Below are positions 5,419-31,971 of a stretch of 32,000 nucleotides of DNA, one piece after another. The notes below the pieces were generated by a model. The model saw nothing but the letters and a program-made list of their open reading frames with translations. It did not search any database and was not told the origin of the DNA. Position 1 is the stretch's first letter, and every line of letters starts with the position of its first letter. The DNA lies in assembly GCA_900751885.1 (NCBI GenBank), contig CAADTH010000050.1, positions 132,431 through 164,430 of the forward strand, read 5' to 3'. A program made the translations under genes and the position numbers. The DNA is from Clostridia bacterium. GTDB taxonomy: Bacteria > Bacillota > Clostridia > UBA1381.

Positions 5419-5442
5419 ATCTTATGCAATTCTGCACAAGGA
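5418..5442 (+). repeat. Copy 2 (degenerate, 25 nt) of the palindromic element: AATCTTATGCAATTCTGCACAAGGA.
   Basis: It starts at the last base of the TAA stop. The left arm matches the consensus at 8/10 positions, the right arm GCACAAGG is intact, and the loop is 1 nt shorter. Confidence 0.5.
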
Positions 5443-10479: not shown

Positions 10480-10498
10480 AATAGAAAGGATAAGAAAC

Positions 10499-11922: not shown

Positions 11923-11946
11923 CCTTGTGCGAATTTTGCACAAGGT
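11921..11946 (+). repeat. Copy 4 of the palindromic element: AACCTTGTGCGAATTTTGCACAAGGT.
   Basis: It begins inside the TAA stop (11920-11922). The stem is a perfect 9 bp (ACCTTGTGC/GCACAAGGT) with a 7-nt loop, followed by TTTT and then the SD of the next gene. Confidence 0.8.
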
Positions 11947-11966
11947 TTTTGAGTGGAGGTTATATT

Positions 11967-12293
11967 ATGGAAAATGAACAGCATCAAAAACTATATATGC
12001 CTAATAACGTTAAAACTCGTAGTGAATTTTTTAACGGTTTTGGGTTTACAGAATTATATCAAGCAATAGGAATTGTACTAATTGTTGGCGGTATATCAGT
12101 CCTAGCATTTTTAATTCATGGAAATTTACCTATACTGATATTATCTATATTAATTATCTGTGCCGTAGCGGTTACTATTCTTACAAAAGATGCAACAAAC
12201 CAAAGTGTTATTGATTACACAAAACATATGATACATTTTGCACATATTCAAAAAACATATCCATATCATTACAATCAGGAGGATTTCAAATGA
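11967..12293 (+). CDS. PrgI-family / VirB3-like T4SS membrane protein.
   Basis: The ATG at 11967 has SD GGAGG upstream, whereas the track start at 11925 lies inside the palindrome. YMPNNVKTRSEFFNGFGFTELYQAIGIVLIVGG followed by a second TM helix matches the PrgI-family pattern. Its stop overlaps the next start (ATGA). Confidence 0.65.
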   Translation: MENEQHQKLYMPNNVKTRSEFFNGFGFTELYQAIGIVLIVGGISVLAFLIHGNLPILILSILIICAVAVTILTKDATNQSVIDYTKHMIHFAHIQKTYPYHYNQEDFK

Positions 12294-12898
12294 AGTTATT
12301 TTCAAAAAAACAAAATGAAGAAGAAGTTAAAATACAGACAGCAAATGATTTTGTTAATATTAGAGATATAAAAGATAATATTTTATATACAAAAGATGGA
12401 TATATTTTTGCCTATATTCGTGTTAGTCCTATTGCTCTTGACCTTTTATCCAGTGCAGAAAAAAAAACTATAACACATAGCCTAACTACAGAAATGTCAG
12501 CAGAAAATAAACCATTTAAATTTTTAAGTATCTCGCGACCAGTTGATATAAGTAGTTTGGTAGATGATATGTATGATTCATATATGACGGCAGAAACACA
12601 AGCTCAAAAAGATATTTTAAAGAATGGGATTGATACTATCAATCATTTTGCGCTGAGTGGCGAAGTAATTGAACGACAATTCTATCATATCATATGGAAT
12701 ATTTATGATGATGATTCAGAAGAAACTTTGATGAATCGTGCGAATGAACTTTGTAATAAATATATAATGTGTGGTATTGATGCAAATTTGCTAAACCAGG
12801 TTGAAATTATACAACTATGCAATCTTTTTGCAAACCCATCATACAGTCACTTAGAGGATGGGAATGTTGAAACAACAATCCCACGGTTGGAGGAATAA
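12290..12898 (+). CDS. 202-aa protein resembling the extreme N-terminal segment of the roughly 800-aa Firmicute VirB4 ATPases (ConE/Orf16/CD1110 type), here a separate ORF.
   Basis: It is translationally coupled to prgI. The pattern FVNIRDIKDNILYTKDGYIFAYIRVSPIALDLLSSAEKK matches my recollection of VirB4 N-termini (i.dg.i...dg.y..il.v.piNf.l.s..E). Together, 202 aa plus 616 aa come close to a full-length VirB4. Confidence 0.55.
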   Translation: MKLFSKKQNEEEVKIQTANDFVNIRDIKDNILYTKDGYIFAYIRVSPIALDLLSSAEKKTITHSLTTEMSAENKPFKFLSISRPVDISSLVDDMYDSYMTAETQAQKDILKNGIDTINHFALSGEVIERQFYHIIWNIYDDDSEETLMNRANELCNKYIMCGIDANLLNQVEIIQLCNLFANPSYSHLEDGNVETTIPRLEE

Positions 12899-12899
12899 T

Positions 12900-14750: not shown

Positions 14751-14787
14751 CAATTTGTTTTCAAAATTTAATTGGAGGTTACGTATT

Positions 14788-20700: not shown

Positions 20701-22650
20701 ATAATAACTATTTATCATACACCATCTATTAATATTATTACTAAAGATGCTGATACGATTTATAATGATTTTGTAGTTGAAACTCAATTAAATGATGTTG
20801 ATGAATCAAGATACACGTATAAATGGTTTATTAGATATAATAATGGAGAAAAAATAAATATTGATAAATATGCAAGTACGAATTTTAATATTAATGGTGG
20901 TACACTTTCTTTTTACGAAAGCGGTAACTATACTATATATCTTGAACTAACAGATAATTTAGAAAATATTTTCTTATATGAAAAAAATATAAAAGTTGAT
21001 AATAAATCATCTGTTAATTTTACATTACAAGGAACAGGCTATATAGGAATTGAAAATAAGATAATTTCCTCTTTAAATGGAGATAACTTAACCATCGAAT
21101 GGTCAATAAGTAAAAATGGTAATACACGTCAACCTTATCTTTATTATGCTGATGGCATACTAAATAATGATGGTGGTTCAATAACTTTTGATAAAGTAGG
21201 GACTTATACTGTTTATGCTATTATCGTAGATAAATACGGAAACTCTTACATAACACAAAGACTCATTACAATAGAAGAATTACCGACTGCTAACGTTATT
21301 ATTCCTCCATACACACATACCGACACTACAATAACAGCAGTGGCTAATTCTGTTATTAGTCAAAGTGGGATAGAATGGTACGTTAAAGATACTCAGACTA
21401 ATAAAACACTTCCATATTCAAATTATTGTAAAGGGAATCTATCATCTTCTGGAGGAGAAATTAAATTTATTAATGCTGGATTTTATGAACTTATAGCAAG
21501 AGTTAAAGGAAGTGACGGCAAGACATTTGATTATAATGCACCTATTCATGTATACCCTACCCCAACCTTAGATACAAATGTTCCTACTTCTTTACACATA
21601 TGTGATTCTTTCTTTTTAAATCTTACTCCATTGAATACTTATCCTAATACAAGTGTAACATGGAGCGTTAAGAAAGATGGTTTAGATGTTGATAACTGGG
21701 ATTATATTTCTCAAAATAGCAATGGTTCTTTATATTTTTCAGAATTTGGGAACTATAAAATAACTGTTAATGTAAAAGATGAAGTTGGACGTATATTTGA
21801 ATTTATAAGCTATATTTTAGTATATAATATTAACCCTGATATGCCTACAGTACAAATTAATAAAACAAGAAATTATAAAAATAATAAATATTACGTCGAA
21901 CTCATTCCAAAAGCTACAGATTCAGATGGAGATTCTGTAACTTATGAGTATGAAAATAAACCTAATGACAACTATTACCCACTAGGTTATACATATGTAC
22001 ATGTTCGAGCAAAAGATATACATGGTGCATATTCTCCCTGGAAAACCGTTACAGTATATGTATCAAATGATTCTCCGTCAGCTCCAACGTTAACACGAAC
22101 TCCTGATAGCGCAAGCATAGAGCCTAATACACCAGTTATAATACAAGCAAGTGGTTCTGTTGACCCTGATGGTGACGCAATACACTATGTTTGGTCTGGT
22201 ATACGAAGTAATAATATCTATCCTTTAGGAAAAAATATTGTAACTTGTAAAGCCGTAGATAATGCTGGAGCAGAATCAAGCTCTACTGCAATGGTCTTTT
22301 TTGTAGCAAATGAAACACAAGGTGGCGGTATGGAACTTACAGGACCCGATTCAACTATTATTGAAGAAGGTATTGAAGGAGCTACTATTACTGGATATAC
22401 ATTTACTGTTCCTCAAGTTTCAGGTCATAATAGCAGTAATGATTTTGGCAGAATACGAGGATATAACATTCAAACAAAATCATGGGAGGAAATTGATTAT
22501 AAATCAACTAATAATGGTGTAGTAATGACCCAAACCCTAGAAAAAGGTAAATATAGCAAATTGGAATTTTATTACTATACAGACCATAACTGTATGTATA
22601 ACCATAGTAACATAACATATGACGTAAGTTTTGATTTTCCATCAAACTAA
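14788..22650 (+). CDS. Giant (2620-aa) secreted, SLH-anchored surface protein with about 23 tandem Ig/PKD-like modules; putative mating adhesin.
   Basis: The ATG at 14788 has SD GGAGG upstream. The signal peptide is MNKRFTSLLLVFTIVISLGANVMA. There are three SLH domains (about 14860-15405; motifs DVPDSHWAAEYIELL, FSDVLDTHWAKKDIERL, ITRAEVFKILC). The repeat array follows, then two DxDGD modules (TDSDGDSVTYEY, VDPDGDAIHYVW) and a terminal beta-rich domain. No LPXTG motif is present. Confidence 0.9.
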   Translation: MNKRFTSLLLVFTIVISLGANVMASNYNDVPDSHWAAEYIELLTQKGILKGTPKGECLPDQNITRAELSALISRNYDQDEYVDMAVNTFSDVLDTHWAKKDIERLVKHSVILPNEYKNGFYPDINASRIEMIRMIVRWLNKDSNVPSKMTPTGFSDDIDLSPEDRGYINVARDIGLISGYPDNSLKPQNPITRAEVFKILCIGLNEKSKPSYFIIFGGNSSGSGSQKTVPKPTVEFALSPYAHTDTEIEVSTKNKNVKSIIWQIRKYDNEQKKYNKVDINNVINGSLNDSGGTIRFNQSGKYEIVAIASNSKGTEYEYKKEINIYDVPTLTLQLNENEYIDNEINIILTNNIDSLNHNIDWYITDETGQKQHYTEFTNGELSKNGGTIKFKTDGKYIISANLTDETNRVFTIEKAITIFPIPIINITANEKVMIDEHVPINIVLNHIGDKEIKWFISKNNDIKPYNEYAKGILSNDGGSIYFENQGQYELIAQVTDELNKQFEYSTSIKVYPIPILNFNLPETAHTDSIINIENNFNNIDGLDVCWKIQKESSEPTDYTEYVSGELSNTGGKIVFKEEGAYTLTANIVNELGKTYSFSDTIIIYPVISPILSVPSVSHIDSTFHISLSDTERQNVEWKISKNNSELQPYNNFTDNILSVNGGNIQLKQDGKYKIVAIITDVTGRQFITESTIIIYPIPTVNFDIPIYAHTDTQIEINPITTNIENNEITWTIIKDDIEKPYNEYVTGELHQNGGTITFLNNGTYSIKATFEDASGRKFESLKTIKIYTIPIVEFGEFGLPNIAHTDTSILIKPELTNIENLKIEWLISKNQTDPLPYNEYVDGSLENTGGTIKFKDKGEYELIAMITDDVGRKYTYNSNTKIYPVPIINLNVPDIGHTDSLININNDNSELNNLDIIWSMTKDGSTEQDYSIFTSGKLNNTGGTISILQKGNYVLIATVIDETGRVFSSSSNLKIYPVPDILIYAPKSAHTDTPINITTKTNELDNLTIKWSIKNNDNNSDIDYFTNNGGTIHLESQGEYIIIATVIDETGRSFKSETQIKIYPIPDLSFDIPLYSHTDTQFSVITHFCDVNNTVSWYVNEENQVLSSNGGTLLLSQKGDYNITSQVTDDTGRTFKYTKSINVYPVPIVNFRRDSNAEFVLPEYGYVNQSITIIPELKELNDLSIKWLISKDGKEAKDYSAYAQGIMTADGGILTFPNTGQYNLIAQISDKVNRVFEYTESIIINSTPSLSFNMPEHSYKEESINITAVGAENNTFEWKISKDNKNPQPYTEYVDGILETNGGSIKFKESGNYNLIFTVTDEAGKVFSFSKRIKILDIPNVEITLPDNTHIGETVKITPKIEHADNLKIQWKLNNKPYQYFANGTLSDNGGSIEFVIPGEYILSATMINEYGREFVYTSNIIKVYDNLYPSFISPLYSSINTDVRITVLEGNNIKWTIQYNNDAEQDYNNVVDGMITDNGGTISFTKAGNYTIIATTTDTIGKEFKYTQNIKIYDIPTVTINCNEKYHANEEINLFTDLTNMEGLEINWTISKDGNVAENYLKYASGVLTKDGGTIFIKEPGEYNIIALVTDKLGISHEFSKTVHIIDVPYIDLNMPQSAFINENINIKVNNYSNDNSINWLIKKGDDTAQDLLTYADGVLNEQGGTIKFKSEGHYTIIAEITDSLNSKHQYSKEIDIFHSSSLKLTTPQYSYINANIKILVEANNLQKTSLKWQISRDNGELENYITYANGTLTDDGGSISFDAPGIYKVVATGYDQLNNIVTSEATINIFELPNIGITMPSTAHTNKAVIVATTNQNTEDATVSWYISKDGDEEQIYTKYVTGELNKNGGYITFNESGSYTVFAKVVDRNGKTFKYHSTITIYDNPEIGIDIVSESYINKSIKILINSSGLKDISWSIAKNGKNAENYLKYATGTLTNIGGSISFDEAGTYKIIASSVDDTGENHIAESIITIYHTPSINIITKDADTIYNDFVVETQLNDVDESRYTYKWFIRYNNGEKINIDKYASTNFNINGGTLSFYESGNYTIYLELTDNLENIFLYEKNIKVDNKSSVNFTLQGTGYIGIENKIISSLNGDNLTIEWSISKNGNTRQPYLYYADGILNNDGGSITFDKVGTYTVYAIIVDKYGNSYITQRLITIEELPTANVIIPPYTHTDTTITAVANSVISQSGIEWYVKDTQTNKTLPYSNYCKGNLSSSGGEIKFINAGFYELIARVKGSDGKTFDYNAPIHVYPTPTLDTNVPTSLHICDSFFLNLTPLNTYPNTSVTWSVKKDGLDVDNWDYISQNSNGSLYFSEFGNYKITVNVKDEVGRIFEFISYILVYNINPDMPTVQINKTRNYKNNKYYVELIPKATDSDGDSVTYEYENKPNDNYYPLGYTYVHVRAKDIHGAYSPWKTVTVYVSNDSPSAPTLTRTPDSASIEPNTPVIIQASGSVDPDGDAIHYVWSGIRSNNIYPLGKNIVTCKAVDNAGAESSSTAMVFFVANETQGGGMELTGPDSTIIEEGIEGATITGYTFTVPQVSGHNSSNDFGRIRGYNIQTKSWEEIDYKSTNNGVVMTQTLEKGKYSKLEFYYYTDHNCMYNHSNITYDVSFDFPSN
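15478..21828 (+). repeat. About 23 tandem, diverged, roughly 276-nt (92-aa) coding repeats within the adhesin gene.
   Basis: The recurrent protein pattern is (I/V)P..(F).P..AHTD..I.I....N...L.I.W.I.K......Y..Y..G.L...GG.I.F...G.Y.LIA...D..GR.F.....I.IYP. I counted the modules by eye in the translation. The copies are too diverged to form long identical DNA repeats. Confidence 0.85.
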
Positions 22651-22656
22651 GATAAT

Positions 22657-22688
22657 AAAAGCGGCTATCAACTGATAGCCGCTTTTTA
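22657..22688 (+). terminator. Rho-independent terminator after the adhesin gene.
   Basis: AAAA GCGGCTATC AACT GATAGCCGC TTTTT. The stem is a perfect 9 bp and GC-rich, with a 4-nt loop, a T5 tail and a flanking A-run. Confidence 0.8.
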
Positions 22689-22689: not shown

Positions 22690-23472
22690 TTGGAGGTGAG
22701 TAAAATAGACCCTGCAACTGCAAAGATAATAATACAAATTGTAATACAGTCTTTAAAGGATGAAGAAACACGCAAACGTTTACTTATGGTTATACTTGCG
22801 CCAGTTGTAACTACCTTGTTATTGATAACACTAATATTTTATTTATTAACATCACCAATAGAAGCATTAGGAGCATTATTTAATAATGATGAACATACAC
22901 AATACGTAAATGATTTGCAAACAAACTATGGTTTTTATGGTGATGGTGCAGTAATTGACATTACAGGAGAATATCGTGAAAGTGAAATGCCATTATTTAT
23001 TCAATGGGATAATAGATGGGGAATGTACCCCTATGGTCGTAGTGGAACTATCGCATCATCAGCTTGCGGTCCAACATCAATGGCTATGATAGTTGTTGCA
23101 TTTACAGGAAAAACAAATGTGAACCCTAAAACTATGGCAGATTGGAGTGTCGCACATGGGCATCGGGTAGAAGGAGTAGGAACAGCATGGTCATTTTTCC
23201 CAGATGCGGCACAAAGCTATGGATTTAATTGTTCACAGTTATCCGTTAATGCATCAGATATTTCAAATTCTTTACGAAATAACAAACCAGTAATTGCAAG
23301 TATGGGACCAGGACATTTTACGAGAGGAGGTCACTTTATCGTTTTACGTGGTATTACTAGTGATGGAAAGATACTCGTAAATGACCCTAACAGTCGTGAA
23401 AAAAGTGAAAAAGCATGGGATATAAGCATTATTGTCAATGAAGCAAAAGCGGCGTGGAGTTTTTATAAATAA
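22690..23472 (+). CDS. Membrane-anchored C39-like (papain-fold) cysteine peptidase; probable T4SS-associated cell-wall hydrolase.
   Basis: An N-terminal TM helix (VILAPVVTTLLLITLIFYLL) is followed by the catalytic-Cys context SSACGPTSMAMIV and the His context GGHFIVLRG...VNDPN. The start is uncertain. The track uses TTG at 22690, but the strong SD GGAGGTGA (22692-22699) is best spaced for the in-frame ATA at 22705. The next ATG (22786) has no SD. Confidence 0.65.
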   Translation: MEVSKIDPATAKIIIQIVIQSLKDEETRKRLLMVILAPVVTTLLLITLIFYLLTSPIEALGALFNNDEHTQYVNDLQTNYGFYGDGAVIDITGEYRESEMPLFIQWDNRWGMYPYGRSGTIASSACGPTSMAMIVVAFTGKTNVNPKTMADWSVAHGHRVEGVGTAWSFFPDAAQSYGFNCSQLSVNASDISNSLRNNKPVIASMGPGHFTRGGHFIVLRGITSDGKILVNDPNSREKSEKAWDISIIVNEAKAAWSFYK

Positions 23473-23491
23473 AAAGAAAGGGGTGAATTTT

Positions 23492-23650
23492 TTGAGTAGT
23501 AATAAAAAAGTTATTGAACTATGTGTGTTAATCGTTATTGTCATATTATTTCTAATTCTTCGAGTATCAGGGACAATGCCTACCCCTCCTAAAATGGATA
23601 TGCCACTACCACCCGATAACACACCTCCAGTAATTGAGCAAGTTCAATAA
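23492..23650 (+). CDS. Small single-pass membrane protein with a proline-rich tail (52 aa).
   Basis: TTG at 23492 has SD AAAGGGGTGA upstream. The TM helix is VIELCVLIVIVILFLILRV and the tail is PTPPKMDMPLPPDNTPPV. The track start at 23432 overlaps the previous gene. Confidence 0.4.
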   Translation: MSSNKKVIELCVLIVIVILFLILRVSGTMPTPPKMDMPLPPDNTPPVIEQVQ

Positions 23651-23670
23651 TTGATATAGCATAATTAAGA

Positions 23671-24867
23671 TTGGAAGTGATTATTTTGATTTATTATATT
23701 ACAAAGCAAGAACATTTGGAACTAGTTCAAGAAGTCTGCGCTGTAAAAGATTTAGCCATTGATTGTGAAATAAACATTGATGATATTCAATGTTTTGTAA
23801 ATCAGGAACTGAAAAAACTACGGCATGTTAAACATTTTATTATTGATGTCTCTGTTTTAAAAAATTCAGAGACAGATATTATGAGTGCTATAATCAGTAT
23901 GAAAATGATGACTCAGGCACAAATTAGCATTGTAGCTTTAGGATATTCTCTCACTCATAATTTAATTCAAGAATTAATTAAGTGCGGAATCTACAATATT
24001 GTTACAAGCAATGATAAACATAATGCTCAACAAGAAGTGGAGAAATGTTTATCTGATAGTGGTATATCTAAAACTGATTTAATACCTGAAAATCAAAACC
24101 CTTTCATGTCAGATTCTCTATCTAGTACGATAAAAACAGAAAAACCATTAGATACCAAAATACCACCTATTAAAGATGAAAATATAAATCTATCTCCTAA
24201 ACCACTCTCCACTAGTAAGAAAAGTTTAATAAAAGATAGTGTTACCATTGGAGTATGCGGAACACAACATCATATTGGGACTACCCATCATGCGATTGCT
24301 CTTACTGCATCACTAATTAATTTAGGATATAAAGCATGTTATTTAGAAGCAAACGTTCATGGAGATATACAGCGATTAGTCGAGGTATATGATGATGATG
24401 AAAGCATAGATGATGATGGTGCATTAACCTGGGGTGGCGTACAAATGTATAGCAATTATTATTTTAATGACGTTACAAAATTAGATTATCAGTTCTATGT
24501 ATACGATTATGGAGTTTGTAGCGAGGTATCATCGCAAGAATATTTGACAAAAGACATTAAGGTATTAGTTACAGGCTCTAAAGCATGGGAATATCAATTA
24601 TATCTTGATATTGTTAATCATATATCTAAAGCTAAAAACCTACATACTATTATGAATTTTGCTCCAATTATAGACCAAGACCAACTTGCTTATAAAGGTA
24701 TGGAACAGACAACGTATTTTCCTCAGTATGCCCCATGCCCATTTGAAGATAGAAACAATGATAATATTTATATTAAAATTATTGAATCTTTTTTAGACAT
24801 AAACCAGCCAAATCAAGTAGATAATACTACAAAAAGAAAATGGTTCTTTAGAAAGGAAAGAAAATAA
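23671..24867 (+). CDS. tadZ: TadZ-like protein: N-terminal receiver-like domain, Pro/Ser-rich linker and a ParA/MinD-like domain with a degenerate P-loop.
   Basis: The alpha/beta N-domain has the pattern (HFIIDVSVL...ISIVALG...IYNIVTS). The C-domain aligns with the ParA/MinD fold (VTIGVCGTQHHIGTTHHAIALTASLINLGYKACYLEAN), but both Walker A lysines are replaced. The start is ambiguous (TTG 23671, GTG 23677 or TTG 23686). Confidence 0.5.
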   Translation: MEVIILIYYITKQEHLELVQEVCAVKDLAIDCEINIDDIQCFVNQELKKLRHVKHFIIDVSVLKNSETDIMSAIISMKMMTQAQISIVALGYSLTHNLIQELIKCGIYNIVTSNDKHNAQQEVEKCLSDSGISKTDLIPENQNPFMSDSLSSTIKTEKPLDTKIPPIKDENINLSPKPLSTSKKSLIKDSVTIGVCGTQHHIGTTHHAIALTASLINLGYKACYLEANVHGDIQRLVEVYDDDESIDDDGALTWGGVQMYSNYYFNDVTKLDYQFYVYDYGVCSEVSSQEYLTKDIKVLVTGSKAWEYQLYLDIVNHISKAKNLHTIMNFAPIIDQDQLAYKGMEQTTYFPQYAPCPFEDRNNDNIYIKIIESFLDINQPNQVDNTTKRKWFFRKERK

Positions 24868-25578
24868 ATGAAGATAAAACTAAATACAAAATTTTTAAAA
24901 AATAAATATGTGCTATCTACCCTATGTATGATTCTATCTGCCATTATCGCTTTTATTATTGTACCTAACAAAGAAAAGCACAAATATGATACTATTAAAA
25001 TAGTACGAACCAACCAGACTATAGAAGCCAACACTTTAATCAATGAAAGTATGTTAAAGACTATAGAGGTTATGCCTTTAAATCTTCCAGATGATATAAT
25101 TACAGATATTAATACAATTATAGGTAAATATACCACTGTACCACTGTTACCATCTGATAACTTAGTATCAAATAAATTTGCAGACACCTCTTCTTTAACA
25201 AAAGCACTATTCAAAAATGAAGATGGTAAATTAGCTGTATCTGTAAGTATCAAGAATTTAGCCGCAAGTGTATCAGGTAAATTGTTACCTGGTGATGTTG
25301 TATCTGTCTACACGTATAATACAGAAGATAAATCATTGATTGAATATGAAGATTTAAAACACGTTGAAATTTTGGCTATAACCAACGATAAAGGTGATGA
25401 TTTAAATAGTGATATATCTAGTAATAATGAAGATAATAATGATAATATTCCTGCTACAATAACGTTATCCGTAAACCAGAATCAAGCAAAAGAATTAATC
25501 AAAGCTGAAAACAGTGGGAATATACATATTGTATTTGCTGGTCGTGGAGAATATGGTAAAAAATTATTAAATCCTTAA
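24868..25578 (+). CDS. cpaB: CpaB/RcpC-like Flp pilus assembly protein (N-terminal TM plus SAF domain).
   Basis: The ATG immediately follows the previous stop. The TM helix is VLSTLCMILSAIIAFIIV. SAF-like region: IVRTNQTIEANTLINESMLKTIEV...IGKYTTVPLLPSDNLVSNKF. The C-terminal beta-rich region ends ...NIHIVFAGRG. Confidence 0.7.
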   Translation: MKIKLNTKFLKNKYVLSTLCMILSAIIAFIIVPNKEKHKYDTIKIVRTNQTIEANTLINESMLKTIEVMPLNLPDDIITDINTIIGKYTTVPLLPSDNLVSNKFADTSSLTKALFKNEDGKLAVSVSIKNLAASVSGKLLPGDVVSVYTYNTEDKSLIEYEDLKHVEILAITNDKGDDLNSDISSNNEDNNDNIPATITLSVNQNQAKELIKAENSGNIHIVFAGRGEYGKKLLNP

Positions 25579-25602
25579 CCTTGTGCGAAAATTGCACAAG
25601 GT
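25577..25602 (+). repeat. Copy 5 of the palindromic element: AACCTTGTGCGAAAATTGCACAAGGT.
   Basis: It begins inside the TAA stop (25576-25578). The stem is a perfect 9 bp with a 7-nt loop. It lies inside the Tad block, and no clean T-run follows. Confidence 0.8.
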
Positions 25603-25630
25603 CTTATTATTTAAGAAAGTAGGTATTAGT

Positions 25631-26371
25631 ATGGGAAAAATAATTGCAATTTACGGCGCACCTGGGAGCGGAAAAACGACTATTGCGTGTAATTTAGCAT
25701 ACGCATTATCAAAGAAAATGACTACAGGTGTGTTACAAACAAATATTTATTACGCTTCAATACAACATTTTTTCGGTATGGAAATTAAAAAATCTAAAGA
25801 TTTATCAACAGCATTGTTAGGATATGGAAAAGAAGATTTGTCAAAATGTTTTACTCCACATCCTCAAAATAATAATCTATATATATTATCACCTAGTAAT
25901 ACTTATGATTGTCTTGCATTGGCAGATGATAAAAATGGTTTAGATGGAGAAACTGCAAAAAATATCATTTTAGAACTCAAAGATATGTTCGATTACTTAA
26001 TTGTAGATTGTACACCAGATATAAATGATGCTCTCGCTATTTATAGTTTAATAAATTCAGAGAAGATTGTTAACATTATCAAACCTAATATACAAGGTAT
26101 GGCATTTGCAACAAGCTATCAATCATTATTCACAGCTCTCGAATTTAGCGATAAAAAAATAATACATGTGATTAATAATGATAAAAACTATATTGGAATC
26201 ACAACAATTCAGAAAATATTAAATGTACCTTCCTCTTTATGTATACCACATCACAAAGATGCTGAAACTGCTGAAAATACAGGAATTCCACTTTATACAT
26301 ATAATAATAAATTTACAACATCTATTAATACTATTATTGATGTTATTATAGGAGGTACAGAAATTGAGTAA
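25631..26371 (+). CDS. ParA/MinD-superfamily ATPase (CpaE/TadZ-like) with an intact P-loop.
   Basis: The ATG at 25631 is preferred because the track start (GTG 25583) lies inside the palindrome. Walker A is IAIYGAPGSGKTTIACNLAYAL and the Walker B-like segment is YLIVDCTPD. Confidence 0.7.
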   Translation: MGKIIAIYGAPGSGKTTIACNLAYALSKKMTTGVLQTNIYYASIQHFFGMEIKKSKDLSTALLGYGKEDLSKCFTPHPQNNNLYILSPSNTYDCLALADDKNGLDGETAKNIILELKDMFDYLIVDCTPDINDALAIYSLINSEKIVNIIKPNIQGMAFATSYQSLFTALEFSDKKIIHVINNDKNYIGITTIQKILNVPSSLCIPHHKDAETAENTGIPLYTYNNKFTTSINTIIDVIIGGTEIE

Positions 26372-27803
26372 ATTCAGTATATTTGAAGCTATATATGAAA
26401 TACATCAACAAAAATCTGTTGTTCAAGACAAAAATAATATTAACAATGGAAAAAGACCATATATAGAGCTTTTAGAAATAGTACGAAATATAATAAGTAA
26501 AAAGCACTCTCAGGAGCTTGCAGATGTTATTTTTCAACCTGAAGGCGAAAAACTTTTAAAAATGCTTCTGACAAAATACATATATCAAAATCATCTAGTA
26601 TGTAATGAATACAATGATATAAATACGCTTGTTGAACATTTTTATGCCGATATGGCTGGATTTGGATTTATCTCTGAATTATTGGCTGATGAATCTATAG
26701 AAGAAATAAATGCTAACCGCTGGGATGATATAGAGGTAATCACAACAACAGGATGGAAAAAATTAGAGCAACATTTTCTATCGCCACAACAAGCGATTGA
26801 TATTACAAAAAAAATGTGTAGATTAGGTGGAGAAATTATTGATGGTAGTAGTCCAGCAAAAGATAGTTATATTACGCAAGGAGTACGAATATCAGCTCTT
26901 ATTCCACCAGTTGTTGATGAAGAAGCTGGAGCCGCATTTTCAATTAGGAAACAAAAACGTAATGTTGTTACAAAAGAAGATTTGATTTCATGGGGAACAG
27001 CCACAGAGGACGAATTAGATTTTCTTAACCTCTGTGTTGCTCATGGCATTTCTATTGGTATAGCTGGCTCTACAGGCTCAGGAAAAACGACAGATATTAA
27101 TTATCTTTTGCGGTCTATTCCTTACGATAAACGTATTTATTCTATCGAGGATTCACGTGAATTAGATTTAACTGTTAGAGATGACAAAGGACGAATACTT
27201 AATCGAGTAATTCATACAAAAACCAGACCTTCACCAAATGCTGAATTAGATGTTGACTCTAATTCACTTTTATTGCGTTCACTCAGATTTGACCCTGATA
27301 TTATATGCCCTGCTGAGATGCGTGGAAAAGAAGCTCTTACAGCACAAGAAAGTGGGCGAACAGGTCATACAATTATTACTTCCCTTCATGCATCTACTGC
27401 ATTAGCGGCTTATACTCGTATAATGACTATGTGCATGATGGGTGATGTCAATTATTCAGAGGATTTACTATTAAAATTAATAATAGAAGCATACCCAATT
27501 ATGGTTTTCAAGAAACAATTACCAGATAAAAGCCGTAAGTTTATGAACATAATTGAAGCTGAAAGTTATGAAAATGGTAAAATCATTTACCGTACTTTAT
27601 TCCGTTATGTAATAACAGGCAGTGAATTTAATGAAGATGGCGTACGCATTAAAAAAATGCAAGGTTATCATAAACGTGTTGATTGTATATCTAATAGAAC
27701 GGCTAATAAATTACTTGAAAACGGCGCAAATCTAAACATCATACGAAAATATGCAGGCAAAGACTGGAATCCTGAAAATGATGGGAGTTGCACATATGTA
27801 TAG
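26364..27803 (+). CDS. tadA: CpaF/TadA-family secretion ATPase (T2SS-E/VirB11 superfamily).
   Basis: TTG lies 8 nt after SD GGAGG. Walker A is IAGSTGSGKTT. Asp-box/Walker B region: RIYSIEDSRELDL...DPDIICPAEMRGKEA. His box: TGHTIITSLHAST. Confidence 0.9.
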   Translation: MSKFSIFEAIYEIHQQKSVVQDKNNINNGKRPYIELLEIVRNIISKKHSQELADVIFQPEGEKLLKMLLTKYIYQNHLVCNEYNDINTLVEHFYADMAGFGFISELLADESIEEINANRWDDIEVITTTGWKKLEQHFLSPQQAIDITKKMCRLGGEIIDGSSPAKDSYITQGVRISALIPPVVDEEAGAAFSIRKQKRNVVTKEDLISWGTATEDELDFLNLCVAHGISIGIAGSTGSGKTTDINYLLRSIPYDKRIYSIEDSRELDLTVRDDKGRILNRVIHTKTRPSPNAELDVDSNSLLLRSLRFDPDIICPAEMRGKEALTAQESGRTGHTIITSLHASTALAAYTRIMTMCMMGDVNYSEDLLLKLIIEAYPIMVFKKQLPDKSRKFMNIIEAESYENGKIIYRTLFRYVITGSEFNEDGVRIKKMQGYHKRVDCISNRTANKLLENGANLNIIRKYAGKDWNPENDGSCTYV

Positions 27804-28701
27804 AGTTATGGTTTTTCTGTTACTTAATATAGGACTATACTTTTTATTTAAAAAAGCTCCTGCACATCGAAAAATAAAACAAGTGTTTACTTCTGATTTA
27901 TGTAAAGACAAACCTAAAAAAAGTTATACAACAACAAAAAAAATAGGATTGCGTGAAAAGTTTCATAACATATCAAGTGATATGTTAAAGTTATCTAAAA
28001 TGACATATAAAGGTTATATGCGTGTAGCCATGATATTTTCTCTTTTAGGTGTTATCTTAGGAATGATGTTAAATAATGTTTTGCTTTCTGTCGTGTTAGG
28101 AATTTGTATGATTTTCATTCCTCTTGAATATTTAAAAGTACGTCAATCAGGATATATTCAGACACTTAATGAACAAATGGAAACAGTATTATCTATTATT
28201 ACTAATTCTTATTTGCAGTCAGGTGATATAATAATTTCTGTTAAAGAAAATCTACATCGTATTGAACAGCCGTTTCACAATATATTTAAAGAGTTTTTGG
28301 CTGAACGAACATTCATTGATTCAAATTTAGTAAAAAGCATTCGTAAAATGCAAAGAAAGGTAGATAATCAATACTTTAATGAATGGTGCGATACTCTAGT
28401 TCTTTGTCAATATGACCATGAGCTACGGTTTATTTTGCCTACTATAATTGAAAAATTAGCTGACTTGAAACAAATTCAAGAAGAACTAAATACACAGATG
28501 ATAAATCTTTATAAAGACCATATCTCTGTATCTTTAGTTGTAGCCGCAAATATTCCACTCATGAGGTTTTTAAACGCTGACTGGTATAGATTACTTACAA
28601 GTACGTTACCAGGTCAAATTATTGTTGCAATAACTTTTCTTATTATATTTTTAGCCACTGCATATGTAATTAAAATAAATAAGCCCGTCAGTGTAAAATA
28701 A
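27796..28701 (+). CDS. tadB: TadB-like inner-membrane platform protein (T2SS-F family).
   Basis: The ATG at 27796 lies 8 nt after GGGAG and overlaps the end of tadA. The topology is an N-terminal TM, paired central TMs, a cytoplasmic helical domain and a C-terminal TM. The size is about 300 aa and the gene follows the ATPase gene. Confidence 0.65.
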   Translation: MYRVMVFLLLNIGLYFLFKKAPAHRKIKQVFTSDLCKDKPKKSYTTTKKIGLREKFHNISSDMLKLSKMTYKGYMRVAMIFSLLGVILGMMLNNVLLSVVLGICMIFIPLEYLKVRQSGYIQTLNEQMETVLSIITNSYLQSGDIIISVKENLHRIEQPFHNIFKEFLAERTFIDSNLVKSIRKMQRKVDNQYFNEWCDTLVLCQYDHELRFILPTIIEKLADLKQIQEELNTQMINLYKDHISVSLVVAANIPLMRFLNADWYRLLTSTLPGQIIVAITFLIIFLATAYVIKINKPVSVK

Positions 28702-28708
28702 AAGTGAG

Positions 28709-29596
28709 GTGAATTTTTTGTATTTTATTTATTATTCCATTTTAATTGTATTGTTATCTTTTGGTTTTTATGAACTTGCAACGCAGTATATTACTATGCC
28801 ATCAAAACGTACTGTCAGAGTTGTAACCTCAATAAGAAACAGACAAAATGTATCACAAAAATTTTATAACATGGTTACAATACCTCTAACAAAAATTATT
28901 GCAAAATTTATTCATTTAGATGATTATAGACGTAAACAGCTTAATCGAAAGTTGCAACGAGCTGGAATTACATTATCACCAGAAGAATATCATGCAAAAG
29001 CTATTGTCACTACATTATTGATTTGGGTATTATCGTTGATATTTATACCATTAGGACTTCCGATTATTACAATGGCAATGTTACTTTTAGGTGTCATCAT
29101 GTATTTTAAGTCTAAACAGCATGTAGACGAAGCCATAAAAGAAATAAATGGTCACATTTTAGATGAATTACCTCGTTTCGTAAGAACTTATAACAATGCA
29201 ATGCACACTGATAAAGACCTTTTGAAATTTATAGAGAAATACAGACAGGTAGCTGGAAAAGATTTTTGCTATGATTTAGATATTTTAATAACAGAATTAA
29301 AAACAGGAAATACAGAAGAAGCATTACAAAGGTTTGATACTCGAATCAACATACCACAATTATCTACATTTATATCGGGAGTGATTGGAGCAACAAGAGG
29401 TGTTGACCAAAGAACATTTTTTTATATGGTCGAAAATGATATGAAGAATCTTGCAAAGGAAAATTTAAAAAGAGAAATTGCTAAACGTCCATCAAAAATT
29501 CGTAAAGCAACAATGGCAGTAGGCGTAATGATGTTTATTATATACCTATACCCTATATTTATGGATTTAAAAAATGGATTAGGTATTTTTAATTAA
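28709..29596 (+). CDS. tadC: TadC-like inner-membrane platform protein (T2SS-F family).
   Basis: It has the same architecture as the preceding gene. The start is either GTG 28709 (track) or, better spaced from SD GAGGTGA, TTG 28718. Confidence 0.65.
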   Translation: MNFLYFIYYSILIVLLSFGFYELATQYITMPSKRTVRVVTSIRNRQNVSQKFYNMVTIPLTKIIAKFIHLDDYRRKQLNRKLQRAGITLSPEEYHAKAIVTTLLIWVLSLIFIPLGLPIITMAMLLLGVIMYFKSKQHVDEAIKEINGHILDELPRFVRTYNNAMHTDKDLLKFIEKYRQVAGKDFCYDLDILITELKTGNTEEALQRFDTRINIPQLSTFISGVIGATRGVDQRTFFYMVENDMKNLAKENLKREIAKRPSKIRKATMAVGVMMFIIYLYPIFMDLKNGLGIFN

Positions 29597-29609
29597 ACGT
29601 AAGTTAATC

Positions 29610-29634
29610 AAGACACTGAAAGGTGTCTTTTTTA
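29610..29634 (+). terminator. Intrinsic terminator or attenuator between tadC and the pilin gene.
   Basis: AAGACAC TGAAAG GTGTCTT TTTT. The stem is 7 bp with a 6-nt loop and a T-run. Confidence 0.6.
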
Positions 29635-29668
29635 TATTAAAATTTAAATTATAAAGGAGAAATGAACA

Positions 29669-29890
29669 ATGAAAAAAATGATGATTAAAGGTGTAATAGC
29701 TTTACAAGGAGCAAAAAACAAAGTTAAATATTTATTAAATGACCAGTGTGGTGAAGGTTACTTAGATGTACTTGTAAAAATATTAATTACAGTAATTTTA
29801 GGAGCCGCTTTATTAGGACTATTGAGGGTTGCAATTCCAGACCTATTTGATGATATTATGGATAAAATACGCTCAGTATTCACAATTTAA
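29669..29890 (+). CDS. flp: Flp-like type IVb prepilin (73 aa) with a non-canonical processing motif.
   Basis: SD AAAGGAGAA lies upstream of the ATG. A charged leader of about 27-30 aa is followed by CGEGYLDVLV and then the hydrophobic helix KILITVILGAALLGLL. The size, architecture and position after tadC fit Flp, but the canonical G/xxxxEY motif is absent. Confidence 0.55.
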   Translation: MKKMMIKGVIALQGAKNKVKYLLNDQCGEGYLDVLVKILITVILGAALLGLLRVAIPDLFDDIMDKIRSVFTI

Positions 29891-29964
29891 CACAAGTCAA
29901 TAAACATCCTACAATTCAATCGTTCCCCTGTAAACTACAGGAGAACAAAAGGAGGTGATTATTT

Positions 29965-30399
29965 TTGTTACAACATTTTAGACTTTTTCTAAAAGATAAA
30001 CATGGCGAAGGATATATTGACGTATTAATACAATTCGCTATAATAATGAGCCTGATTTTTTGTTTTGTTTCTCTGTGGAAACCCTATATTTACAAACAAA
30101 ACATGGATTATATGGCAAAAACATTAATAAGAAGTGTTGAAGCTAATGGAAAGATAGACAGTGAAACATCTGCACTTGCATCAGAATTAAAAGCTACTAT
30201 GGGAATAAATCCAAACATAAAATGGGAAGCCGATTTTATTTCAGGAACGAATAAAATACAGTTACGAAAAAAATTTAAACTTCTAGTTACTGATACCCTA
30301 ACCATAAAGTTATTTGAACCGACATTTGGAAACCCTATTCAAATTCAAATTCCTATAAAAAAAGAGTTCATTGGTATATCTCAAGTTTATTGGAAGTAA
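29965..30399 (+). CDS. TadE-like pseudopilin / minor pilin (144 aa).
   Basis: TTG start follows SD AAAGGAGGTGA. The N-terminus KHGEGYIDVLIQFAIIMSLIFCFVSLW shares GEGY(L/I)DVL plus a hydrophobic helix with the pilin. Confidence 0.45.
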   Translation: MLQHFRLFLKDKHGEGYIDVLIQFAIIMSLIFCFVSLWKPYIYKQNMDYMAKTLIRSVEANGKIDSETSALASELKATMGINPNIKWEADFISGTNKIQLRKKFKLLVTDTLTIKLFEPTFGNPIQIQIPIKKEFIGISQVYWK

Positions 30400-30408
30400 G
30401 GTGTAAGA

Positions 30409-30876
30409 ATGAATAAATTAATTAAAGACACACGTGGTTATTCTAATGTGTTTTTGCTGTTTTTTGTATTTATATTTCTCATAATAACAACAATAACGAT
30501 TGAAATTTATCATGTATATACATTAAAAGAACACATAGATACTGAAATATCAAGAGGATTAAATATTGCTACTGACACGGCAATGCTTGATGAATACAGA
30601 ATGTCACATATAAGTAAAATTGATTTTACTATAGCACAAGATACCTTTAATGATTATCTACATGATGAAATGAAGTTAAATAATAATATGACACGTATTG
30701 AAAATGGCAAAATCACTTATGAGCTTATTATACAGAACGTTAAATTAGAAAATGAACCAGTAAAATATGAGGTTCAAGGTGTAATAAAAACACGTCCTAT
30801 TTTAATTGGAAAATTAACCTCCATAGACATTGAAATTCCATTTAAAGTAAAAGCCAGAAATCAGCGATTTGAATAA
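30409..30876 (+). CDS. TadE/TadF-like pseudopilin (155 aa).
   Basis: The N-terminus is DTRGYSNVFLLFFVFIFLIITTITI, that is GY.(D/N)V(L/F) followed by a TM helix, as in the two preceding genes. Confidence 0.4.
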   Translation: MNKLIKDTRGYSNVFLLFFVFIFLIITTITIEIYHVYTLKEHIDTEISRGLNIATDTAMLDEYRMSHISKIDFTIAQDTFNDYLHDEMKLNNNMTRIENGKITYELIIQNVKLENEPVKYEVQGVIKTRPILIGKLTSIDIEIPFKVKARNQRFE

Positions 30877-30901
30877 AGGTGTAATAACTATACATAAGGT
30901 G

Positions 30902-30930
30902 TTGACACTATTTATATTATATGCTATACT
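30902..30930 (+). promoter_or_regulatory. Near-consensus sigma-A promoter with an extended -10.
   Basis: The -35 is TTGACA (30902-30907), the spacer is 17 nt, and TGc precedes the -10 TATACT (30925-30930). SD AAAGGAGG and the ATG at 30953 follow. Confidence 0.6.
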
Positions 30931-30952
30931 TGTTATGAAAGGAGGAGTTCAA

Positions 30953-31135
30953 ATGTCATTAAAAAATAGAGGACGTATTGGATTAGTTCTGGATAATAAA
31001 ATAGTTGAATGGTTAAGATTTGAAAATGAATCAACTGATGTACCCATCAGCCGTATTGTAGAAAAAGCAATCAAAATACAGTATGAAGAAAAAATAGAAC
31101 AATATTTTAAACAGAAAGAAGGTTATGAAAAATGA
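30953..31135 (+). CDS. Small ribbon-helix-helix (CopG/Arc-like) DNA-binding protein (60 aa).
   Basis: The ATG at 30953 follows SD AAAGGAGG, whereas the track start at 30869 would run through the promoter. RIGLVLDNKIVEWLRFENESTDVPISRIVEKAIK has the beta-strand, helix, helix pattern of RHH regulators. Confidence 0.5.
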   Translation: MSLKNRGRIGLVLDNKIVEWLRFENESTDVPISRIVEKAIKIQYEEKIEQYFKQKEGYEK

Positions 31136-31971
31136 AAAAAACAGTATCATTGATATTATCATTAATTATGTTAGGGTTTACACTTAATGCAGTTGCAATG
31201 GAATCAAAACAGGTCACAGTTACATTGGATGGAAATATAGTACAATTCCCTGATGCGAAACCATTTATTGACAACAAGGATAGAACATTAGTACCAATAC
31301 GATTTGTTTCTGAAGCGTTAGGTGGAGTTGTAACATGGGATAATGATACACAAACTGTCACTATCGTAAAAGGAGATAGCACTATAATCACAACTATTAA
31401 TAGTGCAAAGGCAACACTAAATGGAATGGTTAATACATTCGATACTTCCACACGATTAAAAGAAGATAGAACGTATGTCCCATTAAGATTTATAAGCGAA
31501 TTGTTAAATTGTGACGTTGAATGGGATGGTGAAAATAATAATGTAGTTATAACTTCCCCATCAGCTCCAACAGCATTTCCAGAGCCAAATTTAACTGTAC
31601 ATTTTCCTAAAAATGAATATGAAAACAATGCATTATGGATAACATTAGATAATTTACGTGATTTTTCAGATTGTACAAATTATGAGTTTTTAATCGAGTT
31701 TATTAACCCATCTGAACTTAATACTACAGAAATATATGAAGGTGCAATAAATGGTTGGCAAACGGTTCAATTAAATCAATGGAGACAAATTTACTATCCT
31801 GATTCACCGCTTTTTGTGGTAAACAAAAAATATTTGACAACTCGTGAAAATATGAAAAGTTTTAATCTTCAAGATGGTATGACATTGAATTTTGTGTTAA
31901 AAGTAAAAAGAAAATGTAGCGGAGAAATTAAAGAATATACATTCAGCGAAACCTATAAGGGAGGAAACTGA
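31132..31971 (+). CDS. Secreted protein with a copper-amine-oxidase N-terminal-like (stalk) domain and an unknown C-terminal domain.
   Basis: The start overlaps the RHH stop (ATGA). The signal peptide is MKKTVSLILSLIMLGFTLNAVA. Duplicated half-motifs DRTLVPIRFVSEALGGVVTWD and DRTYVPLRFISELLNCDVEWD are the hallmark of this domain. Confidence 0.7.
   Translation: MKKTVSLILSLIMLGFTLNAVAMESKQVTVTLDGNIVQFPDAKPFIDNKDRTLVPIRFVSEALGGVVTWDNDTQTVTIVKGDSTIITTINSAKATLNGMVNTFDTSTRLKEDRTYVPLRFISELLNCDVEWDGENNNVVITSPSAPTAFPEPNLTVHFPKNEYENNALWITLDNLRDFSDCTNYEFLIEFINPSELNTTEIYEGAINGWQTVQLNQWRQIYYPDSPLFVVNKKYLTTRENMKSFNLQDGMTLNFVLKVKRKCSGEIKEYTFSETYKGGN

Follow-up and report, generated by a model that had tools for sequence, protein, structure and literature searches.

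The window analysed here, a stretch of 32,000 nucleotides that forms part of a 221-kb metagenome contig from a Clostridia bacterium (CAADTH010000050.1, positions 132,431 to 164,430), carries a block of Tad-type pilus genes in line with the genes of a Gram-positive conjugative type IV secretion system (T4SS). Genes were assigned by Pfam and NCBIfam profile searches of the open reading frames (ORFs) of the window, all sizeable ones of which lie on the + strand, and G+C content is even across it, at 27-35%. The Tad genes proper occupy positions 23671-30876 and are co-directional, downstream of genes for a relaxase, a type IV coupling protein (T4CP), a VirB2-like protein, VirB6, VirB3, VirB4 and an SLH adhesin. 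A first-pass annotation, made from the letters alone, had placed the Tad genes on this strand downstream of the relaxase, T4CP, VirB3, VirB4 and VirB6 genes, which the ORF map and Pfam bear out; it had, however, counted 22690-23472 into the block, and this ORF is a Peptidase_C39_2 gene (E 7e-22), the Tad genes starting at 23671. The block reads as follows.

23671-24867, + strand: TadZ-like protein, 398 aa (structure model and homologues)
24868-25578, + strand: CpaB/RcpC (Pfam RcpC, E 5.5e-15)
25631-26371, + strand: MinD/ParA-type ATPase, CpaE-like (Pfam/NCBIfam; Walker A intact, GAPGSGKTT)
26364-27803, + strand: CpaF/TadA secretion ATPase (Pfam T2SSE, 5.8e-26)
27778-28701, + strand: TadB-like platform protein, 307 aa (paralogy, T2SSF matches within its family, fold model)
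28709-29596, + strand: TadC-like platform protein, paralogue of the TadB-like protein (paralogy, T2SSF matches within its family)
29669-29890, + strand: small pilin, DUF6133, 73 aa (Pfam E 6.8e-8; class III signal peptide)
29965-30399, + strand: pseudopilin, DUF4320 (Pfam 1.8e-30; HG↓EGYIDVLI, the arrow marking the predicted cleavage site here and below)
30409-30876, + strand: third pilin-like protein (...DTRG↓YSNVFLLFFVF, then a hydrophobic helix; position conserved in relatives)

The first of these proteins matches no Pfam family, and its 16 more distant homologues, only 26-44% identical, all have a degenerate P-loop, GVCGxxxHxGTTHHA. Its AlphaFold model (pLDDT 74) consists of an N-terminal alpha/beta domain, a disordered linker and a C-terminal domain of ParA/MinD fold with a degenerate Walker A, and in Foldseek searches this model found ParF, FlhG, MinD and FleN at about 1e-6 and, with both domains covered, the E. 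rectale TadZ (3FKQ) at E 3.3e-5; as a description of the modelled architecture of the 398-aa protein, "TadZ-like" seems fair. CpaB fell slightly below the 71-bit cutoff of TIGR03177 (E 2e-18, 66.6 bits). The best solved relative of the CpaF-like protein is C. crescentus CpaF (E 3e-31 over residues 52-422, comprising both domains), archaeal GspE2 also being among the best, whereas the match to a VirB11 structure (E 6e-15) covers the C-terminal domain only; the residues of the Walker A, Asp box, Walker B and His box are invariant among relatives. The NCBIfam models for VirB11, TadA-type, TrbB and FlaI proteins all scored below cutoff and no equivalog was assigned; judged from the structural and sequence matches, the secretion ATPase of the window clearly falls in the CpaF clade over both domains.

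Neither TadB nor TadC of the window has a Pfam match, T2SSF not being reached, and the two are placed as platform proteins because of paralogy, matches within their families and a fold model. The TadB and TadC families are paralogous (hhalign 98.4%, E 5e-15), Pfam T2SSF is matched by two of 12 TadB-like and one of 12 TadC-like family members, and the sole specific fold matches of the TadB AlphaFold model (pLDDT 75) are the cytoplasmic domains of PilC, EpsF, TcpE and OutF, at a TM of about 0.73 and a probability of 0.8-1.0, yet with E of about 1. Profile searches of the PDB with TadB/TadC found PilC at no better than E 0.096, and searches with the single sequences of TadB, TadC and the TadZ-like protein gave no informative match. 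Type IVc systems are characterised by a pair of paralogous platform proteins with one domain each (PMC6916266).

A Flp-like pilin and two TadE-like pseudopilins had been proposed for the end of the block. None of the three pilin-like proteins matches Pfam Flp_Fap or TadE, the first two belonging to DUF6133 and DUF4320 instead; profile searches place RcpC, T2SSE and MinD/ParA members in the block as foreseen, whereas its TadB and TadC miss T2SSF and its pilins miss Flp/Fap and TadE. The predicted processing region of the DUF6133 pilin is ...NDQCG↓EGYLDVLVKILITVILGAALLG (CG↓EGYLDVLVKIL), with a predicted mature length of about 45 aa; it keeps Gly-1 and Asp+5 but lacks both a Tyr at +6 and the Flp motif, and on this sequence the protein is best described as a functional analogue of the Flp pilin, not a member of the Flp family. 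The motif G↓EGY[IL]D with Gly-1 and Asp+5 is common to the DUF6133 pilin and the DUF4320 pseudopilin, the predicted processing site of the latter being GEGY(I/L)DVL as in the pilin and that of the third protein RG↓YSNVF, and the pilins of relatives keep the pattern of a class III signal peptide, [GA]↓xxxx[DE] with a hydrophobic helix after it.

No prepilin peptidase is encoded inside the window. About 1.8-2.9 kb past its end, three genes on and on the + strand of the same contig, lies a gene for an A24 peptidase of 136 aa (L003:17410-17820; Pfam A24, 2.9e-16) that carries both catalytic Asp motifs, YDIK..IPN and GGGDIKL; the description of the block as a full-looking Tad set holds for its machinery genes, the peptidase lying outside the window. 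The ORF at 8453-8902, in the position that A24 occupies in relatives, was considered as a hidden prepilin peptidase and rejected, being unrelated to A24. Among the + strand ORFs scanned (all of at least 106 aa plus several shorter ones) there is no secretin, as the first-pass annotation had also found, and the absence of the secretin RcpA is expected in monoderm Tad systems (PMC6916266). With the A24 gene included the set is complete (TadZ-like protein, CpaB, MinD/ParA ATPase, CpaF, TadB, TadC, one major and two minor pilin-like proteins), and it has what marks a Tad system: an ATPase of the CpaF/TadA clade, two paralogous platform proteins, a TadZ/CpaE ParA-like protein together with CpaB/RcpC, and a short TadV-type A24 prepilin peptidase.

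Upstream of the block lie the DNA-processing and T4SS genes, and directly downstream two conserved followers.

172-4137, + strand: SNF2/ResIII helicase, 1321 aa (Pfam/NCBIfam)
4183-5418, + strand: DUF3991/Toprim primase-like protein (Pfam/NCBIfam)
6275-6595, + strand: NikA/MobC accessory protein (Pfam NikA-like, 6e-20)
6544-7539, + strand: MobA/VirD2-type relaxase (Pfam Relaxase, 5e-37)
8917-10479, + strand: T4CP, VirD4/TraG (Pfam T4SS-DNA_transf, 1e-56)
10454-10840, + strand: candidate VirB2-like T4SS pilin, a 128-aa membrane protein (Pfam T4SS_pilin, 26.9 bits, cutoff 26.6)
10871-11704, + strand: VirB6 (TrbL_4; Pfam 7.7e-102)
11925-12293, + strand: PrgI/VirB3-like gene (weak Pfam match)
12290-12898, + strand: 202-aa gene at the TraC-like position of relatives (gene order in relatives)
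12858-14750, + strand: VirB4 ATPase (Pfam)
14737-22650, + strand: 2637-aa surface protein with N-terminal SLH domains (Pfam SLH, 9e-25) and about 20 Ig/PKD-like repeats
22690-23472, + strand: Peptidase_C39_2 (papain-like) protein with an N-terminal membrane helix as anchor (Pfam)
30869-31135, + strand: RHH_3 DNA-binding protein, conserved follower of the Tad block (Pfam; relatives)
31132-31971, + strand: Cu_amine_oxidN1 surface protein, conserved follower of the Tad block (Pfam; relatives)

By Pfam, the parts of a Gram-positive conjugative T4SS are present, namely relaxase, T4CP, VirB4, VirB6, a VirB3-like protein and a candidate wall hydrolase. The last of these, the C39_2 protein, is kept between VirB4 and the Tad block in all close relatives, a position downstream of VirB4 that in other elements is taken by C40, NlpC/P60 or M23 hydrolases. 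Its gene position suggests that it is T4SS-associated, and it may be a cell-wall hydrolase (a VirB1 analogue) or a maturation protease; a sequence search of solved structures gave no relative. The candidate VirB2-like pilin, which sits between the T4CP and VirB6 genes, touches the premise of a pilus-free Firmicute conjugation from which the first-pass annotation had set out and which is now being revised, as VirB2-like proteins have been reported in nearly all, and VirB2-like pili in most, Gram-positive T4SSs (bioRxiv 10.64898/2025.12.18.695078), although these form a different filament from Tad. Should the protein at 10454-10840 prove to be a VirB2-like pilin, the element would, like IncI plasmids, have genes for two filament systems.

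The gene order of close relatives indicates how closely the two sets of genes are joined. In the first half of four of them (L090, L092, L093 and L097) the order is SLH protein, A24, T4CP, VirB2-like protein (113 aa), TrbL_4, a 68-aa protein, PrgI, TraC-like protein and VirB4; in the second half of close relatives a variable slot is followed by C39, a small ORF, TadZ-like, CpaB, a pair of DNA methylases, ParA, CpaF, TadB and TadC, and the array ends with DUF6133, DUF4320, a 151-aa protein, RHH_3 and a Cu_amine_oxidN1 or SLH protein. Because the A24 gene of these relatives lies upstream of T4CP, on the far side of the T4SS, the Tad genes bracket the T4SS, an arrangement that is hard to reconcile with a self-contained inserted island. 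Identity to the close relatives is 39-43% for the TadZ-like protein and 64-67% for VirB4, T4CP and CpaF; the homologues bear the source labels Clostridia, Clostridiales or Ruminococcus, and a scan of genome contigs yielded two genuine relatives, L010 and L011, among the matches listed. These labels, the base composition and the SLH and Cu_amine_oxidN1 proteins all point to a low-GC host of Clostridia type.

The slot between VirB4 and C39 varies, holding the adhesin and a hairpin in the window, a 262-aa minus-strand gene in L090 (8126-8914), the stretch 8092-8834 in L093 and a PhdYeFM/ParE toxin-antitoxin pair in some others. A DNA_methylase (PF00145) and MT-A70 pair is inserted between cpaB and the ParA-like gene in relatives (L090:11955-13710, L093:11890-13642, L097:11961-13716, also L096), with a palindrome after the pair; the window has the palindrome at this junction (25578-25630). 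One and the same TadZ-like protein (P0048) is found in two contexts (L097:1-9796 as against L096:6513-9796 and L098): in L097 the Tad block follows A24, T4CP and the genes through VirB4, and in L096 and L098 it comes after C39 and the 262-aa minus-strand gene, which directly adjoin a relaxase gene and a 252-aa gene. The latter arrangement could be a deletion derivative, an alternative order or an assembly collapse across repeated palindromes.

The palindrome in question, ACCTTGTGC-N7-GCACAAGGT, is 25 nt long and occurs in four copies in the window, against 0.02 expected, a number that none of 100 shuffles reached; two terminator-like hairpins are listed with it.

4137-4161, + strand: palindrome copy 1, directly after the helicase stop codon
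7829-7853, + strand: palindrome copy 2, immediately behind a stop codon, with a Shine-Dalgarno sequence next to it downstream
11922-11946, + strand: palindrome copy 3, between a 68-aa gene and the PrgI/VirB3-like gene; relatives have a copy at the same junction
25578-25602, + strand: palindrome copy 4, between cpaB and the ParA-like gene, which lie 52 nt apart (-16.6 kcal/mol)
22657-22686, symmetrical, no strand assigned: intrinsic-terminator-like hairpin with a perfect 13-bp stem and A4/T5 flanks (-22 kcal/mol, z -5.9)
29610-29629, + strand: terminator-like hairpin ahead of the pilin gene (folding prediction)

Each palindrome copy begins within the stop codon of the upstream gene (TA/A or TG/A), several have a Shine-Dalgarno sequence 3-10 nt downstream, and the predicted RNA hairpins have energies of -10 to -16.6 kcal/mol. 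A degenerate fifth copy, ATCTTATGCAATTCTGCACAAGGA, stands at 5419-5442 directly after the Toprim stop codon, and at the same junction L096:2879 is a good copy. In relatives the palindrome takes the form ACCTT[G/A]TTCC-N5-GGAA[C/T]AAGGT and marks corresponding junctions, upstream of the PrgI, ParA-like and DUF4320 genes and downstream of the pilin, helicase and Toprim genes. Across 17 copies 93% of cells are paired and four pairs are changed on both sides, which none of 500 shuffles reached; both G:T and A:C mismatches occur in the arms, and therefore a + strand RNA hairpin and a palindromic operator cannot be distinguished. A terminator function as a general rule was rejected, a T-run following only some copies, and no Rfam family matches anything in the window, the palindrome included. 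We propose that the palindrome is an element-wide intercistronic signal, either RNA hairpin or operator, common to the DNA-processing, T4SS and Tad genes. Its recurrence within the Tad block had been noted before as a 26-nt repeat inside the block at 25577; the recurrence is real, but the copy is 25 nt long, starts at 25578 and is intergenic, with cpaB and the ParA-like gene on either side. That it ties the DNA-processing, T4SS and Tad genes together is confirmed and strengthened. Palindrome junctions also resemble sites of cargo-gene gain.

The hairpin at 22657-22686 lies between the adhesin stop and the C39 start, 3 nt ahead of the C39 ORF. T4SS and Tad genes point the same way and are closely spaced, yet this hairpin of -22 kcal/mol stands between them, and the earlier wording "without gaps" passes over it and the one at 29610-29629. 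The proposal that the two parts form one regulatory and evolutionary unit is supported in its evolutionary half, by the bracketing through A24, the plasmids described below and the palindrome; the regulatory half is only suggested by the palindrome, with the hairpin intervening. Read-through or antitermination at 22657-22686 is conjecture.

A survey of plasmids, along the lines of the synteny check that had been suggested for tad with virB4, T4CP and relaxase genes, found that the pairing recurs on many Bacillota elements, the Tad module adjoining conjugation genes on at least nine divergent Bacillota plasmids, among them the following.

Terrisporobacter pTPHSE1: Tad module beside T4CP and VirB6
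C. difficile pCd5_2 and LIBA6289: Tad module beside T4CP and VirB6
C. difficile toxin plasmid pHSJD-312: Tad module beside PrgI, VirB4 and NlpC/P60
Oscillospiraceae plasmid: Tad module beside TrbL and VirB4
Thermoanaerobacterium pMU3262: two Tad module copies beside an FtsK-type ATPase
B. cereus pG9842_209: Tad module beside T4CP
B. thuringiensis pBMB67: Tad module downstream of the T4SS genes (order given below)

On pBMB67 the order is that of the window, with relaxase, T4CP, a small protein, TrbL, PrgI, a hypothetical protein, VirB4 and an SLH protein followed by CpaB, an AAA ATPase, CpaF, TadB, TadC, pilin and DUF4320, and its VirB4 is the closest plasmid relative of the window's (38%). The pXO1-like plasmid pCER270 also carries the module. 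On the pXO2-like pBT9727 the gene annotated "VirB11" is homologous to the window CpaF over both domains (E 3e-14) and is followed by a TadB-like (hhalign 95.4%, E 2e-8) and a weaker TadC-like gene (63.6%), directly upstream of VirB2-like, T4CP, VirB6 and VirB4; this is a reduced set, with no CpaB or ParA-like protein annotated. Megablast of the Tad block against PLSDB gave no match, and tblastn of the TrbL_4 protein against plasmids gave nothing at E 1e-10. The two Tad copies of pMU3262 have diverged (L005:17979-23700 and 30560-36483) and have Cu_amine_oxidN1 and PQQ-like beta-propeller proteins between them; on pG9842_209, too, the module has a beta-propeller protein ahead of it.

A metagenome scan with the CpaF N-terminal domain gave more than 600 matches, at least 519 of them confirmed, and the best 80 loci were analysed, for which the neighbour counts are lower bounds, given 10-kb flanks and few seed sequences. 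The order A24-CpaB-ParA-CpaF-TadB-TadC-DUF4320 is kept in these 80 loci. Where at least 5 kb lies downstream, a large surface protein follows in 29 of 32 loci, often with Listeria-Bacteroides repeats, and TrbL/VirB6 in nine of the 32 (TrbL_5 in L133, E 9e-106); the surroundings are mobile-element-like, with ParB, D12/anti-restriction-type methylases, ANT/Bro, YodL/DUF3846 and TrbL_5.

The two modules appear to have had different histories. The VirB4 and T4CP of the window are closest to those of pBMB67 (38-39%) and far from those of the clostridial plasmids (VirB4 21-26%, T4CP about 30%), whereas for its CpaF, TadB and CpaB the clostridial plasmids come nearest (27-36%, the pTPHSE1 CpaB at only 24%) and pBMB67 is the most distant (22-29%). 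As these ranks are incongruent, the modules have been re-assorted, although each lineage still keeps Tad beside the T4SS, and the module is kept across T4SS types marked by TrbL_4/5, pLS20_p028 or an FtsK-type ATPase. Persistence through module exchange may be read, from these comparisons, as a sign that selection favours having both modules while their physical coupling is loose, and re-assortment fits an accessory role in mating-pair formation better than a structural part of the channel. A chance juxtaposition, or the recent insertion of an independent Tad island, could draw on the differing module histories and on the variable slots that flank the block on both sides; it is nevertheless largely refuted, and we regard it as extremely improbable, as the pairing recurs in more than 10 divergent elements, the palindrome is common to the rest of the element and T4SS genes separate A24 from the block in relatives. 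Nor were flanking repeats, an integrase or a transposase found around the block as boundaries of an independent mobile insertion, and its GC content is even, in keeping with the first-pass view of one evolutionary unit. The data support a real and intact-looking Tad set that is integrated in a conjugative element and is not a chance neighbour.

Alternatively, the module might be a part of the translocation machine itself, in which the CpaF-like ATPase would stand in for the missing VirB11 and the pilus, or a pseudopilus, would serve as piston or conduit, opening the thick wall and S-layer of donor or recipient or carrying DNA, and would be essential in all conditions as for PAPI-1. Gram-positive T4SSs lack VirB11, the ATPase has long been annotated VirB11 in the tra regions of pAW63/pXO2-type plasmids (PMC9673590), the reduced ATPase and TadB-like set of pBT9727 lies directly upstream of its T4SS genes, and PAPI-1 and archaeal integrative and conjugative elements (ICEs) provide precedents (PMC12857230, PMC6563490). 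However, the ATPase is clearly of the CpaF clade in both domains, the element has a full pilus set with pilins and a peptidase of its own, in addition to which it encodes all of the Gram-positive T4SS core and, separately, a VirB2-like protein, and the incongruent evolution of T4SS and Tad speaks against tight protein-protein integration; we consider this explanation improbable.

Among described systems, the block resembles the monoderm Tad systems of B. breve and M. luteus, and the E. rectale TadZ, in its secretin-less CpaF/TadA, its paralogous single-domain platform pair, its TadZ-type protein, its short TadV-type A24, its very small pilin with two minor pilins and class III signal, and its CpaB/RcpC. 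It differs from them in that its pilins are DUF6133 and DUF4320 proteins with a cleavage motif G↓EGY(I/L)D and Asp+5, TadB and TadC are too divergent for T2SSF, a degenerate two-domain TadZ-like protein stands beside a separate MinD-like ATPase with intact Walker A, and the whole sits in a conjugation locus. A divergent clostridial "tad-like" group lacking recognisable Flp pilins was noted in 2011 by Imam et al. (PMC3244431), to which the module of the window probably corresponds as a candidate member; Tad systems are known in Bacilli and Clostridia, are often plasmid-borne and derive from archaeal pili (PMC6668835). A type IV filament encoded beside a T4SS on the same element is shared with the thin pilus of the IncI plasmids R64 and TP114 and with PAPI-1, whose pili are used to catch recipient cells, above all in liquid or in the gut (PMC3548315, PMC9045228, PMC12857230). 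Unlike these, which are type IVb systems of diderms with a secretin and PilV adhesin shufflons, the system of the window is type IVc and monoderm-type, with a putative role in transfer. Thaumarchaeal ICEs have a similar gene content, VirB4, VirD4, VirB6 and VirB3 with TadC, a FlaI/PilT ATPase, a prepilin peptidase and pilins forming a predicted conjugation apparatus (PMC6563490), although the hosts are archaeal and the genes not syntenic with the window. A 2025 review of T4SS nomenclature lists type IV pilus partners only for IncI, PAPI-1 and other Gram-negative and archaeal cases (PMC12857230).

Closer to the window, pBMB67 has the same gene order but Tad proteins only 22-29% identical, and on the pXO2-like pAW63 and pBT9727 the ATPase is called VirB11 in the literature, its neighbours being unnamed. 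Of these plasmids pBT9727 is experimentally conjugative (PMC9673590), and knowledge of the pAW63 tra region is homology-based, not experimental, according to a review of the B. cereus group (PMC9673590). The C. difficile plasmid pHSJD-312 and C. acnes linear plasmids likewise have a Tad locus beside VirB4, T4CP or FtsK-type transfer genes; in the former "a tad-like locus" is listed among virulence factors (PMC6141592), and for the latter a possible link between tad and conjugation was raised earlier, its authors calling the functional link unclear (PMC5696575), although the C. acnes system is actinobacterial and has true Flp-type pilins, unlike the window. The arrangement is thus less unusual than the first-pass annotation supposed, as it is present in published plasmids as "VirB11" or "a tad-like locus"; that it is not an established part of Firmicute conjugation agrees with a literature that mentions its function only in passing. 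Tad and T4SS genes are widely paired in Bacillota conjugative elements, a feature that is under-recognised and that in published plasmids has been overlooked or mislabelled.

These observations allow a model to be proposed. We favour, with moderate confidence, the reading that the block is a secretin-less, monoderm-type (type IVc) Tad pilus system that serves as a conserved functional module of a Bacillota conjugative element, the role in mating-pair formation being one that we infer from gene association. In this model, the A24 peptidase would cleave the pilins after the conserved Gly, and CpaF, acting on the TadB/TadC platform, would polymerise them into a thin filament passing through the wall and S-layer, with the TadZ-like and ParA-like proteins positioning the machine and CpaB forming a ring. 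The filament would capture recipients, perhaps being tipped by minor pilins or acting together with the large surface adhesins found beside the module in almost every case. If CpaF is bifunctional, as in Caulobacter, the pilus would retract and draw donor and recipient together, whereupon the SLH/Ig adhesin might stabilise the pair and the channel formed by VirB4, VirB6, VirB3, the VirB2-like protein and T4CP could pass relaxase-bound single-stranded DNA. The pilus is probably retractable, and we propose that the module is to Gram-positive elements what the accessory type IV "thin pilus" is to IncI plasmids. Transfer in liquid mating is up to 100% for pAW63-type plasmids (PMC9673590), which would fit a pilus capturing distant cells.

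Several points weigh against this proposal. In the literature searched, the coverage of which was incomplete, no experiment linking these Tad modules to transfer was found, and retraction is extrapolated from Caulobacter CpaF. The incongruent phylogenies mean, as far as sequence comparison goes, that the Tad module is separable from the T4SS; a strong hairpin in the window, and an opposite-strand gene in relatives, divide T4SS from Tad, and a single operon is not shown. The Tad block of L096 lies beside a relaxase gene with no T4SS on its 33.8-kb contig, and the metagenome counts are subject to the survey limit given above. Furthermore, pXO1-like plasmids such as pCER270 carry the module and are reported not to be self-transmissible (PMC9673590), and Tad loci are frequent plasmid cargo for adhesion or colonisation (PMC6668835; for B. 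breve, as cited in PMC6916266).

One alternative is a cargo adhesin, in which Tad would benefit the host bacterium through gut or surface colonisation or biofilm formation and simply ride the element, its position reflecting a compact architecture. No other class of type IV filament is carried by plasmids, or transferred, as often as Tad (PMC6668835), papers on plasmids of C. acnes and C. difficile group the tad locus with adhesion or virulence factors (PMC9119108, PMC6141592), and the terminator-like signals that part the block from the T4SS genes, the incongruent module histories and the retention of the module by non-self-transmissible pXO1-like plasmids all speak for it. However, the relatives' A24 gene lies upstream of T4CP within the transfer array, the module sits in the backbone transfer region and not in accessory regions in every plasmid inspected, it has been kept through exchange of the T4SS type, and the intercistronic palindrome is common to the DNA-processing and T4SS genes, so that we hold a cargo role to be rather unlikely. 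Some other function of the pilus in the service of the element, such as DNA uptake or competence, donor aggregation or biofilm, or a receptor or exclusion role, appears very unlikely: transformation of M. luteus needs Flp pili (PMC4322843, as cited in PMC6916266) and aggregation-driven mating is known in the B. cereus group (PMC9673590), but none of the loci seen has ComEA- or ComEC-type genes in its vicinity, and an aggregation role overlaps heavily with mating-pair formation.

A broader version of the mating-pair model, which we put forward tentatively as a possibility, holds that Tad systems of the DUF6133/DUF4320 kind are the missing recipient-capturing organelle of many Bacillota plasmids and ICEs and are needed for efficient mating in liquid or in the gut. 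The class would take in elements of gut Clostridia, C. difficile toxin plasmids and the pBMB67 and pG9842_209 types, with the pXO2-like plasmids having a reduced form in which "VirB11" would be the pilus motor. The finding and holding of recipients by Gram-positive donors is still explained mainly by surface adhesins, and if the model is true, donors would reach recipients with a retractile filament and not with adhesins alone. If Tad acts in mating, the combination of CpaF clade, DUF4320 and DUF6133, which is widespread and easy to recognise, would be a marker of elements transferable in liquid or gut, C. difficile toxin plasmids and those of the B. cereus group among them, genes annotated "VirB11" in pXO2/pAW63-type tra regions would have to be renamed, and the pilus would be a target for blocking transfer.

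Two further observations concern the distant loci of the metagenome scan. In the 29 loci of L099-L178 mentioned above, for example at L151:10597-16275 and L155:15217-20001, it is one or two large proteins that follow Tad, the scanned examples being rich in Flg_new repeats; either the pilus or the T4SS could have such a protein as its partner adhesin. In addition, the DUF6329 motif that forms the end of the 1321-aa helicase of the window recurs in a 344-aa protein (L133:18983-20017) encoded downstream of TrbL_5 in a distant gut element.

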